Positions 1,240 through 3,262 of a stretch of DNA of 3,343 nt are shown in pieces (position 1 is the stretch's first letter; each line of letters opens with the position of its first letter). The notes below the pieces were generated by a model. That model saw nothing but the letters and a program-made list of their open reading frames with translations, had not been told where the DNA came from and ran no database searches. Source of the stretch: a phage. The DNA lies in sequence record PZ195125.1, one strand, 5' to 3'. The position numbers and the translations under genes were made by a program.

Positions 1240-1632
1240 ATGGCAACTTTACGCAGTTTCGTACTCGTCGATAATGGCGGTACGGGGAATGTTACTGTCG
1301 TTCCTGTTAGCAATGCCAACGGCGTCGCTGAGTGGCTTTCTAATAACTCGCGCAGTCAAGCTTATCGCGTAACTGCCAGTTATCGTGCGTCAGGCGCAGA
1401 CAAGCGCAAATACACCATCAAACTCGAAGTGCCGAAAATCGTCACTCAGGTTGTGAACGGTGTTGAGCTGCCTGTTTCTGCCTGGAAGGCTTACGCCTCC
1501 ATTGACCTGACCATCCCTATCTTTGCTGCAACCGACGATGTGACCGTTATTTCCAAGTCACTCGCTGGCCTGTTCAAAGTTGGGAACCCTATCGCTGACG
1601 CCATCTCTTCTCAGAGTGGCTTCTACGCGTAA
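1240..1632 (+). CDS. cp: Coat (capsid) protein, 130 aa including the initiator Met; also the translational repressor of the replicase gene
   Basis: ORF with SD GGAG at 1228-1231, 8 nt before the ATG at 1240. The translation MATLRSFVLVDNGGTGNVTVVPVSNANGVAEWLSNNSRSQAYRVTAS...IPIFAATDD...GNPIADAISSQSGFYA is, from memory, near-identical to the Escherichia phage GA coat protein and clearly homologous to the MS2 coat (FVLVDNGGTG, NGVAEWISSNSRSQAYKVT, TIPIFA, GNPIP). Stop TAA at 1630-1632. Confidence 0.96.
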   Translation: MATLRSFVLVDNGGTGNVTVVPVSNANGVAEWLSNNSRSQAYRVTASYRASGADKRKYTIKLEVPKIVTQVVNGVELPVSAWKAYASIDLTIPIFAATDDVTVISKSLAGLFKVGNPIADAISSQSGFYA

Positions 1633-1823
1633 TGGGTCTGAAAGCAAAACATAAGGAAAACCTATGTTCCGATTCACAGAGATCGAAAAGACTCTATGTA
1701 TGGATCGCACTCGCGATTGTGCTGTCCGATTTCACGTCTATCTTCAGTCATTGGATTTGGGGTCTTCTGATCCTCATTCTCCGGACTTTGATGGACTTGC
1801 CTACCTTCGTGATGAATGTTTAA
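1632..1823 (+). CDS. lys: Lysis protein L, 63 aa; small single-pass membrane protein
   Basis: The ATG at 1632-1634 shares its A with the coat stop codon (UAAUG at 1630-1634). The ORF is in a different frame from the replicase and overlaps its first 160 nt. The translation has a basic N-terminus (MGLKAKHK...RSKR) followed by a long hydrophobic stretch LYVWIALAIVLSDFTSIFSHWIWGLLILILRTL, including an LS dipeptide as in the essential LS motif of MS2 L. It aligns by eye with MS2 L (…RSSTLYVLIFLAIFLSKFTNQLL…). Size and position match the lysis gene of group II leviviruses. No convincing SD lies upstream, consistent with translation coupled to coat termination. Confidence 0.85.
   Translation: MGLKAKHKENLCSDSQRSKRLYVWIALAIVLSDFTSIFSHWIWGLLILILRTLMDLPTFVMNV
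1649..1667 (+). promoter_or_regulatory. Translational operator hairpin (coat-protein binding site) containing the replicase start codon
   Basis: Seen in sequence: ACAUA-A-GG-AAAA-CC-UAUGU. The lower stem is 1649-1653 paired with 1663-1667 (5 bp), with a bulged A at 1654, an upper stem GG 1655-1656 paired with CC 1661-1662, and a 4-nt loop AAAA 1657-1660. The replicase AUG (1664-1666) sits in the 3' arm and the SD-like AAGGA (1653-1657) in the 5' arm. This has the same architecture as the MS2 operator ACAUGAGGAUUACCCAUGU (bulged A, 2-bp upper stem, 4-nt loop). Confidence 0.88.
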
Positions 1824-3262
1824 CTAAACATCCTTCACTTGGAGATAGTAATTCGGACGCACGCCGTAAGGAATTGGCATATGCCAAACTTATGGATAGT
1901 GATCAAAGATGCAAAATCCAAAACAGTAACGGATACGACTACTCTCATATCGAGAGTGGCGTACTGAACGGCATACTCAAGACCGCTCAGGCCCTTGTGG
2001 CAAACTTGCTTACGGGTTTTGAATCTCACTTCCTGAACGATTGTTCATTCTCCAATGGAGCCTCACAAGGGTTCAAGTTGCGGGATGCAGCGCCGTTTAA
2101 GAAGATCGCTGGGCAAGCAACCGTTACAGCTCCTGCTTATGGCATCGCCGTAGCCGCCGTTAAAACGTGCGCGCCGTGGTATGCTTATATGCAGGAAACG
2201 TATGGCGATGAGACCAAATGGTTTCGTCGGGTATACGGCAACGGTTTGTTTTCTGTTCCGAAGAACAATAAAATAGATCGGGCTGCCTGTAAGGAGCCTG
2301 ATATGAATATGTACCTCCAGAAAGGGGCGGGATCTTTTATAAGAAAACGCCTTCGTTCCGTTGGTATAGATCTTAACGATCAAACGCGCAATCAGGAATT
2401 AGCCCGACTTGGCAGCATTGATGGTTCACTCGCTACTATTGATCTTAGTAGCGCTAGTGATTCTATCTCTGACCGTCTCGTCTGGGATCTACTTCCACCG
2501 CACGTTTATTCATACCTCGCTCGTATCCGTTCGTCTTTCACCATGATCGACGGGCGGTTACATAAGTGGGGTCTATTTTCTACCATGGGAAACGGCTTTA
2601 CGTTCGAACTCGAGTCCATGATCTTTTGGGCTCTGAGTAGGAGTGTCATGCTGTCCATGGGTGTTACTGGCTCATTAGGCATCTACGGTGACGATATAAT
2701 CGTTCCTGTAGAATGTGCCCCAACCCTCCTTAAGGTACTATCCGCCGTAAACTTTCTTCCAAATGAGAAGAAGACGTTTATAACGGGTTACTTTCGTGAG
2801 AGTTGTGGTGCTCATTTCTTTAAGGGTGCCGACATGAAACCTTTTTACTGCAAGCGGCCAATGGAAACCCTTCCCGATGTCATGTTGCTTTGCAACAGGA
2901 TAAGGGGTTGGCAGACCGTTGGTGGAATGTCAGATCCGCGGCTCTTCCCAATTTGGAAGGAGTTTGCTGATATGATTCCGCCGAAGTTTAAGGGTGGATG
3001 TAACCTGGATCGCGATACTTACCTCGTTTCACCGGATAAACCCGGTGTCACATTGGTTCGTATCGCTAAGGTGCGCTCTGGTTTTAACCACGCGTTCCCG
3101 TACGGTCATGAAAATGGCCGCTACGTCCACTGGTTACATATGGGATCGGGAGAAGTTCTCGAGACCATATCCTCCGCCAGGTTTAGGTGTAAACCTAACT
3201 CGGAATGGAGAACACAGATCCCTCTATTTCCTCAGGAATTAGAGGCCTGCGTTCTCTCCTGA
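1664..3262 (+). CDS. rep: RNA-dependent RNA polymerase (replicase beta subunit), 532 aa
   Basis: A 1599-nt ORF that is last in gene order. The catalytic motif C, YGDD, is at 2684-2695 in the context GSLGIYGDDIIVP. A motif-A-like acidic block IDLSSASDSISD lies at 2438-2473. Long stretches match the MS2 replicase as I recall it (VPKNNKIDRAACKEPDMNMYLQKG, GSxDGSLATIDLSSASDSISDRLVW, FSTMGNGFTFELESMIFWA, KTFxxGxFRESCGAHF, KPFY, GGMSDPRL). Stop TGA at 3260-3262. Confidence 0.96.
   Translation: MFRFTEIEKTLCMDRTRDCAVRFHVYLQSLDLGSSDPHSPDFDGLAYLRDECLTKHPSLGDSNSDARRKELAYAKLMDSDQRCKIQNSNGYDYSHIESGVLNGILKTAQALVANLLTGFESHFLNDCSFSNGASQGFKLRDAAPFKKIAGQATVTAPAYGIAVAAVKTCAPWYAYMQETYGDETKWFRRVYGNGLFSVPKNNKIDRAACKEPDMNMYLQKGAGSFIRKRLRSVGIDLNDQTRNQELARLGSIDGSLATIDLSSASDSISDRLVWDLLPPHVYSYLARIRSSFTMIDGRLHKWGLFSTMGNGFTFELESMIFWALSRSVMLSMGVTGSLGIYGDDIIVPVECAPTLLKVLSAVNFLPNEKKTFITGYFRESCGAHFFKGADMKPFYCKRPMETLPDVMLLCNRIRGWQTVGGMSDPRLFPIWKEFADMIPPKFKGGCNLDRDTYLVSPDKPGVTLVRIAKVRSGFNHAFPYGHENGRYVHWLHMGSGEVLETISSARFRCKPNSEWRTQIPLFPQELEACVLS

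Follow-up and report, generated by a model that had tools for sequence, protein, structure and literature searches.

A GA/BZ13-type levivirus lysis gene whose start codon overlaps the coat stop and which is very probably coupled to coat translation

Positions 1632-1823 (plus strand) of the window, by which we mean the whole 3343-nt stretch of DNA that was analysed, are almost certainly the L (lysis) gene of a group II levivirus of the GA/BZ13 type, coupled to the coat gene by termination-reinitiation. The anatomy of this gene, its homology, its lack of an SD sequence and its conservation were all observed directly in the window. The original prediction had been made from the bare sequence, and its reasoning was sound. 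The window can be labelled with confidence as a GA/BZ13-type levivirus strain in which all four genes are intact. The GA coat/lysis UAAUG junction is itself already known. It was annotated in 1986 and dissected in 2000 and 2023, and the KU1 variant of it was described in 1996. The new material reported here consists of side observations, on a junction variant in which an insertion is combined with a restored AUG, and on a block of the coat gene that does not vary.

Genome identity and the coat/lysis junction

A megablast search of the whole window against annotated phage records returned six full-length matches, in which GA is counted twice (X03869 and NC_001426), and all of them are group II F-specific RNA coliphages. 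Nucleotide identity was 95.5% with BZ13 DL20 and 94.4% with GA (each over 100% of the query) and 94.3% with BZ13 DL10, followed by 85.7% with BZ13 T72 and 85.2% with KU1. For MS2-type genomes the megablast match was limited to a 400-nt segment of the replicase gene. Both this genome similarity and the gene order maturation-coat-L-replicase, with each of the four genes assigned to the expected Pfam family, are those of Emesvirus japonicum. Judged by its sequence, the window is a GA/BZ13-type strain of this group II levivirus. It represents a near-complete genome; compared with GA, it lacks approximately 86 nt of 5' and 37 nt of 3' terminal sequence.

All of the features described below lie on the plus strand. 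The maturation gene (51-1223) was taken from the ORF list and matches Phage_mat-A. The coat gene (1240-1632, 130 aa) is the upstream ORF of the coupled pair; it matches Levi_coat with 132 bits and has annotated equivalents in GA, DL20 and DL10. The replicase beta-subunit gene (1664-3262, 532 aa) matches RNA_replicase_B with 729 bits. Between them lies L (1632-1823), which specifies a type II single-gene lysis protein of 63 aa, recognised by Pfam family PF11125 and by BLASTP similarity to MS2 L, and intact in the relatives.

The original prediction held that the coat stop codon and the L start codon share one nucleotide, and direct reading confirmed this. The coat stop UAA occupies 1630-1632 and the L start AUG 1632-1634, with A1632 common to both, so that the junction reads UAAUG (1630-1634), alike in GA, DL20 and DL10. 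Reading from the preceding in-frame stop (TGA at 1596), no start codon is encountered in this frame before the ATG at 1632. In the GA record (X03869) the coat gene is annotated at 1325-1717 and the lysis protein at 1717-1908, so that the two genes again have one base in common; the DL20 and DL10 annotations agree with this. The window therefore has the UAAUG-type overlap by which GA-type termination-reinitiation is recognised. From 27 nt 5' of the coat stop to 44 nt 3' of it, the window and GA differ at one base, which is located 21 nt upstream of the AUG.

GA, DL20 and DL10 also share with the window the 63-aa L, the 160-nt overlap with the replicase gene and the operator hairpin. They differ from it by strain-level substitutions only, and the architecture is identical. 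GA L and window L differ at 3 of 63 residues, for example at residue 51, which is Q in GA and R here (nt 1783). This position is polymorphic in both group II lineages: G is found in the window, DL20 and KU1, and A in GA, DL10, T72 and the metagenomic contigs. The change is synonymous in the replicase gene (Pro) and exchanges Arg for Gln in L.

The absence of a good SD upstream of L had also been predicted, and duplex energies bore this out. The best anti-SD duplex within 20 nt 5' of the L start has an energy of -2.7 kcal/mol, which is the background level: the mean across the window is -2.62 kcal/mol, and 46% of positions are as good as the L start or better. The corresponding values are -9.5 kcal/mol for the maturation start, -6.1 kcal/mol for the coat start and -6.2 kcal/mol for the replicase start. 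L is thus an SD-less downstream ORF, as in GA-type coupling.

Coupling of L to coat translation

Stop-start overlaps of 1 nt or 4 nt (UAAUG or AUGA) and termination-reinitiation are general in bacterial and archaeal operons (PMC10666635, PMC12548453). Many of the cellular pairs keep an SD inside the upstream gene, whereas the GA-type junction works without any. For this reason studies of ribosome recycling and translational coupling have, since 2000, turned to the GA junction as a clean, SD-less model.

The proposal that L is translated by ribosomes that terminate on the coat gene and then reinitiate at UAAUG agrees with published reporter work on GA, the junction of which is one base away from that of the window. 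According to Inokuchi et al. (PLoS One 2023, PMC9955659), who summarise EMBO J 2000;19:3788, the SD-less GA lysis gene is read strictly by ribosomes that have completed the coat gene. In the same paper, changing the upstream AUG to AUU abolished downstream expression, as did changing the AUG of UAAUG to AUA when ribosome recycling factor (RRF) was active, and approximately 25% of the upstream ribosomes reinitiated with RRF active. Shifting the AUG by -1 to +4 nt relative to the stop left the yield unchanged. Deletion and substitution analyses revealed no element that permits expression of the lysis gene independently of coat translation (PMC9955659). We take the dependence of L on coupling from these GA experiments, and its lytic activity from those on KU1 described below. 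By this analogy, we infer that the strain in the window would behave like GA.

In the mechanism that we propose, L has no ribosome-binding site of its own. A ribosome finishing the coat gene at UAA 1630-1632 would be released by RRF, and a fraction of the released ribosomes would re-engage the AUG at A1632, in the -1 frame relative to coat. Their product, 63 residues long, is basic at the N-terminus and hydrophobic in its C-terminal part, where LS is located, and would bring about autolysis of the host. The output of L would be a fixed small fraction of the coat output, so that lysis would be delayed until much coat protein had been made. Further downstream, L occupies the +1 frame relative to replicase codons 1-53, and L codons 6-12 lie on the operator hairpin, where coat protein represses translation of the replicase gene.

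A different route to the same dependence on coat translation would be RNA unfolding, in which the L start is buried in a structure that is melted by the ribosomes translating the coat gene and is then used for de novo initiation by free 30S subunits. This is among the models given for MS2 in a 2025 review. A candidate for such a structure is a hairpin at 1597-1623 in the 3' end of the coat gene, which corresponds to GA 1683-1707 and is labelled in the GA record 'pot. function in lysis gene control'. Its predicted energy of -10.7 kcal/mol is no better than that of shuffled sequences, however (z = -1.29; 22 of 200 shuffles were equally good), and a search for compensatory changes in this hairpin among the relatives found none. 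On this folding model the hairpin is weakly supported and probably dispensable for the mechanism, and we did not adopt the annotated lysis-control element into it. Closer to the start codon, a predicted pairing of U1633-C1638 with 1671-1676 includes the UG of the L AUG and could in principle hide it, but L has no SD by which free 30S subunits would be recruited. The GA experiments argue more directly against unfolding. They exclude free ribosomes, and no sequence was found from which the lysis gene is expressed without coat translation (PMC9955659). Moreover, structure that was destabilised without coat translation is reported for GA to have failed to turn on L. We consider de novo initiation after unfolding very unlikely at this junction, and retain termination-reinitiation.

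The group I phages MS2 and fr (Emesvirus zinderi) provide a comparison within the leviviruses. Their L proteins are homologous to that of the window, with 43% identity over the conserved core for MS2 L, and share with it the basic N-terminus, the hydrophobic domain containing LS and the overlap of the replicase start in the +1 frame. Their expression is also coupled to termination on the coat gene, as at the GA-type junction. The position of the start codon is different. In MS2, L (1678-1905) has its start codon within the coat gene (1335-1727), 50 nt ahead of the coat stop, which upholds the contrast drawn in the original prediction, and in fr the L start lies 38 nt before the stop. The MS2 and fr proteins thus have approximately 17 extra N-terminal residues, whereas L of the window overlaps the coat gene by one base only. 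In MS2 L, homology sets in at residue 23, immediately past the coat stop. Group II L is therefore essentially MS2 L minus its coat-embedded N-terminal extension.

One statement about MS2 did not stand. Reinitiation in MS2 had been said to depend on out-of-frame termination, a frameshift proposal for MS2 L that was reportedly made by Kastelein et al. in 1982. That model has been superseded, and later work credits termination at the coat stop itself. As relayed in the 2025 review (Berkhout 1987), MS2 L is activated by termination at the coat stop, through RNA unfolding and/or (backward) scanning.

The L protein and its overlap with the replicase gene

The identification of the 1632-1823 product as an L-type lysis protein was substantiated by several comparisons. 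It matches Pfam PF11125 (Phage_MS2_lysis) over residues 6-53 with 30.6 bits, above the cut-off of 25 (E = 3.3e-7). BLASTP against MS2 L gave 43% identity with an E value of 1e-10, and aligned KHKENLCSDSQRSKRLYVWIALAIVLSDFT against KHEDYPCRRQQRSSTLYVLIFLAIFLSKFT with LS on LS. The LS dipeptide of the window (L31-S32, nt 1722-1727) is aligned with L48-S49 of MS2. The protein matches the lysis protein annotated in BZ13 DL20 at every residue (100% identity), and it equals KU1 L across the last 57 residues.

The domain organisation is likewise that of a lysis protein of this type. Residues 1-20 (1632-1691) form a basic N-terminal domain with a net charge of +4. Hydrophobicity was scored with Kyte-Doolittle windows, and the 19-residue windows scoring above 1.6 cover residues 21-39 and 42-60/45-63. 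The first hydrophobic stretch, residues 21-39 (LYVWIALAIVLSDFTSIFS, 1692-1748), scores 1.77 over 19 residues, includes LS and aligns to MS2 L 38-52; the second, residues 42-60 (1755-1811), scores 1.73. The resemblance to MS2 L that had been noted from the sequence, in the LS dipeptide and in a basic N-terminus followed by a hydrophobic C-terminal part, was thus recovered in charge, in hydrophobicity and in the register of LS. A cationic N-terminus, a hydrophobic domain, LS and a C-terminal segment follow one another in the order described for type II lysis proteins (bioRxiv 10.1101/2023.10.16.562596). The location of the gene is also the expected one, between the coat and replicase genes and overlapping the replicase start in another frame. 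The single-gene lysis protein (Sgl) of KU1 lyses E. coli and does not stop net peptidoglycan synthesis, which places it in the type II or L-like class (bioRxiv 10.1101/2023.10.16.562596). By analogy with KU1 Sgl, the L protein of the window would be expected to be lytic as well.

The 160-nt overlap of L with the replicase gene (1664-1823), with L in the +1 frame of replicase, was found as predicted. In this segment replicase codons 1-53 and L codons 11-63 are encoded together, and the variability of replicase third codon positions is in keeping with dual coding. Across six genomes, 4 of the 53 third positions in the overlap vary, compared with 215 of 480 elsewhere in the gene (Fisher p = 1.7e-8), and the least variable 48-codon windows of the whole replicase gene are those that start at 1664-1697. 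The group I phages MS2, fr and DL52 show the same dip in third-position variability over their own L overlap. The L frame is open in all 11 relatives compared (GA, DL20, DL10, T72, KU1 and six metagenomic or viral contigs), and it survives insertions of 18 nt and 3 nt in the KU1 lineage. The hydrophobic segments, the similarity to levivirus L proteins and an uninterrupted ORF in every relative, the absence of which would have counted against the original prediction, were therefore all present.

The window also contains a number of alternative-frame ORFs with lengths of 45-106 aa, so that the length of the L ORF alone is not evidence beyond chance. What lifts L above chance is its homology, its conservation and the suppression of synonymous change. 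Of six control alternative-frame ORFs, five are broken in the relatives, and these show no comparable third-position suppression: the third-position variability of the main gene is 0.21 across 1839-1967 and 0.47-0.69 across the other four broken controls. The ORFs at 4-324, 991-1155, 1839-1967, 2409-2546 and 2994-3242 were considered as hidden genes, and they were rejected as chance ORFs because they are interrupted in relatives. The ORF at 2409-2546, which would specify 45 aa within the replicase gene and includes a very hydrophobic stretch (Kyte-Doolittle score of 2.9), recalls phage M and its embedded lysis gene. Stops interrupt it in KU1 and T72, however, and the replicase third positions there vary freely.

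Third-position suppression is not in itself specific proof of L coding, since a block of the coat gene at 1273-1349, in which the sixth control ORF lies, is equally invariant. Judging from this block, RNA-level constraints of like strength do exist in the genome. That L might be no more than a chance open frame, lying without a functional protein over a region conserved for the replicase N-terminus, the operator and long-range RNA pairing, can nevertheless be dismissed as vanishingly improbable: a 63-codon open frame is not rare, comparable alternative-frame ORFs occur in the window and the coat gene holds another invariant block with an intact alternative-frame ORF, but the L product exceeds the curated Pfam threshold, is significantly homologous to MS2 L with the LS motif aligned and is nearly identical to a KU1 protein that is lytic (bioRxiv 10.1101/2023.10.16.562596), and its frame remains open through both insertions of the KU1 lineage.

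Operator hairpin, junction variants and an invariant coat-gene block

The replicase operator, a predicted binding site for coat protein, is a hairpin at 1649-1667 that has a bulged A1654 and an AAAA loop, and whose 3' arm contains the replicase AUG. Its predicted energy is -4.9 kcal/mol (z = -2.64) and it is invariant in all of the relatives. In the GA record the corresponding site is labelled 'pot. binding site coat protein'. Rfam matched 1647-1667 to the MS2 operator family RF02359 below the gathering score of 40 (18.1 bits, E = 0.48) and gave no other match. On the predicted fold, the hairpin would work like the MS2 operator, yet it fails the score required by the MS2-derived RF02359 model.

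The original prediction had assigned three functions to the segment shared by L and the replicase gene, namely the L membrane-spanning domain, the replicase N-terminus and the operator. L, replicase and operator do coincide in this segment, but the operator covers L codons 6-12, in the basic N-terminus, together with the first replicase codon, whereas the hydrophobic domain is encoded by nt 1692-1811. That part of the claim had to be corrected.

The operator hairpin lies 15 nt downstream of the L start. In the predicted fold of 1590-1680, the pairing of U1633-C1638, in which the UG of the L start codon takes part, with 1671-1676 forms the base of an extended operator helix, and all of these pairing positions are invariant among the relatives. 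In this model, coat protein bound to the operator might also lower reinitiation at L, although we think this unlikely. If it were true, gating by the operator would tie the timing of lysis in group II to the concentration of coat protein, which MS2, with its L start far upstream, cannot do.

At least three states of the junction are found in group II, represented by the GA type, the KU1 type and the metagenomic contig L011. The GA type reads UAAUG and the KU1 type reads UAA, then GGCGUAGUUCUUCAGCAU, then UGG. KU1 and T72 share with the window the L protein from residue 7 on, the operator and the replicase overlap. They differ from it in an 18-nt insertion that lies between the coat UAA and the remainder of the start codon. 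L of KU1 and T72 starts at a UUG 18 nt 3' of the stop, and one further residue is contributed by a 3-nt insertion. Groeneveld, Oudot and van Duin (1996, Virology 218:141) described the KU1-type junction with its UUG start.

The insertion opens with 7 nt (GGCGUAG) that are exactly the reverse complement of the final 7 nt of the coat gene (CUACGCC). The sequence CUACGCC-UAA-GGCGUAG can therefore form a perfect 7-bp hairpin with the coat stop as its loop (KU1 1708-1724; also in L004, L007-L009, L011 and L012). This complementarity hints at a copy-back origin of the 18-nt insertion.

In contig L011 (OGVH01001890.1, 375-400, to be compared with 1630-1640 of the window) the KU1-type 18-nt insertion is present and ends in ...CAGUAAUGGGUC. 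L would here have an AUG start, within a second UAAUG that is in the coat frame, five codons past the coat stop. KU1, T72, L007-L009 and L012 read CAUUGG where L011 has this AUG. In a neighbour-joining tree built from 866 shared columns, bootstrap values inside the KU1-type clade were 44 or lower. The L011 junction may be either ancestral or a revertant. Contig L007 (IMGVR_UViG_3300019216_000186) has a KU1-type junction, with approximately 89-90% identity to GA-type genomes and only 89-93% to KU1 and T72, and in the tree it does not group with the remaining KU1-type sequences. From these comparisons L007 may be a recombinant or an intermediate lineage.

The invariant block in the coat gene (1273-1349) comprises 77 nt with zero variation in ten group II sequences. 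Overall, 40% of coat third positions vary, and further downstream of the block as many as 17 of 20 sites do so. An alternative-frame ORF (1274-1372), which would specify 32 hydrophobic residues (MAVRGMLLSFLLAMPTASLSGFLITRAVKLIA), overlaps the block and is intact in 10 of 10 sequences; no SD was seen by eye. In MS2, fr and DL52 the equivalent of this ORF stops after six codons, and the 5' region of the coat gene is only mildly conserved.

Within the block, GCUUUC at 1335-1340 (coat codons 32-34) is complementary to GAAAGC at 1640-1645, which lies between the L start and the operator. Both hexamers are invariant in all of the relatives. In MS2, the long-range 'Min Jou' pairing couples translation of the replicase gene to that of the coat gene. 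We take 1335-1340 and 1640-1645 to be at the position expected for this pairing. When the replicase ribosome-binding site was scanned for long-range duplex partners, several sites came out with similar energies, among which the one at approximately 1335-1340 (-10.2 kcal/mol) did not rank first. Because of its position, an RNA-level constraint is the likelier explanation of the block, in preference to the ORF at 1274-1372. A 6-bp pairing is insufficient to account for 77 invariant nt. The pairing of 1335-1340 with 1640-1645 would be a fourth constraint on the 5' part of L.
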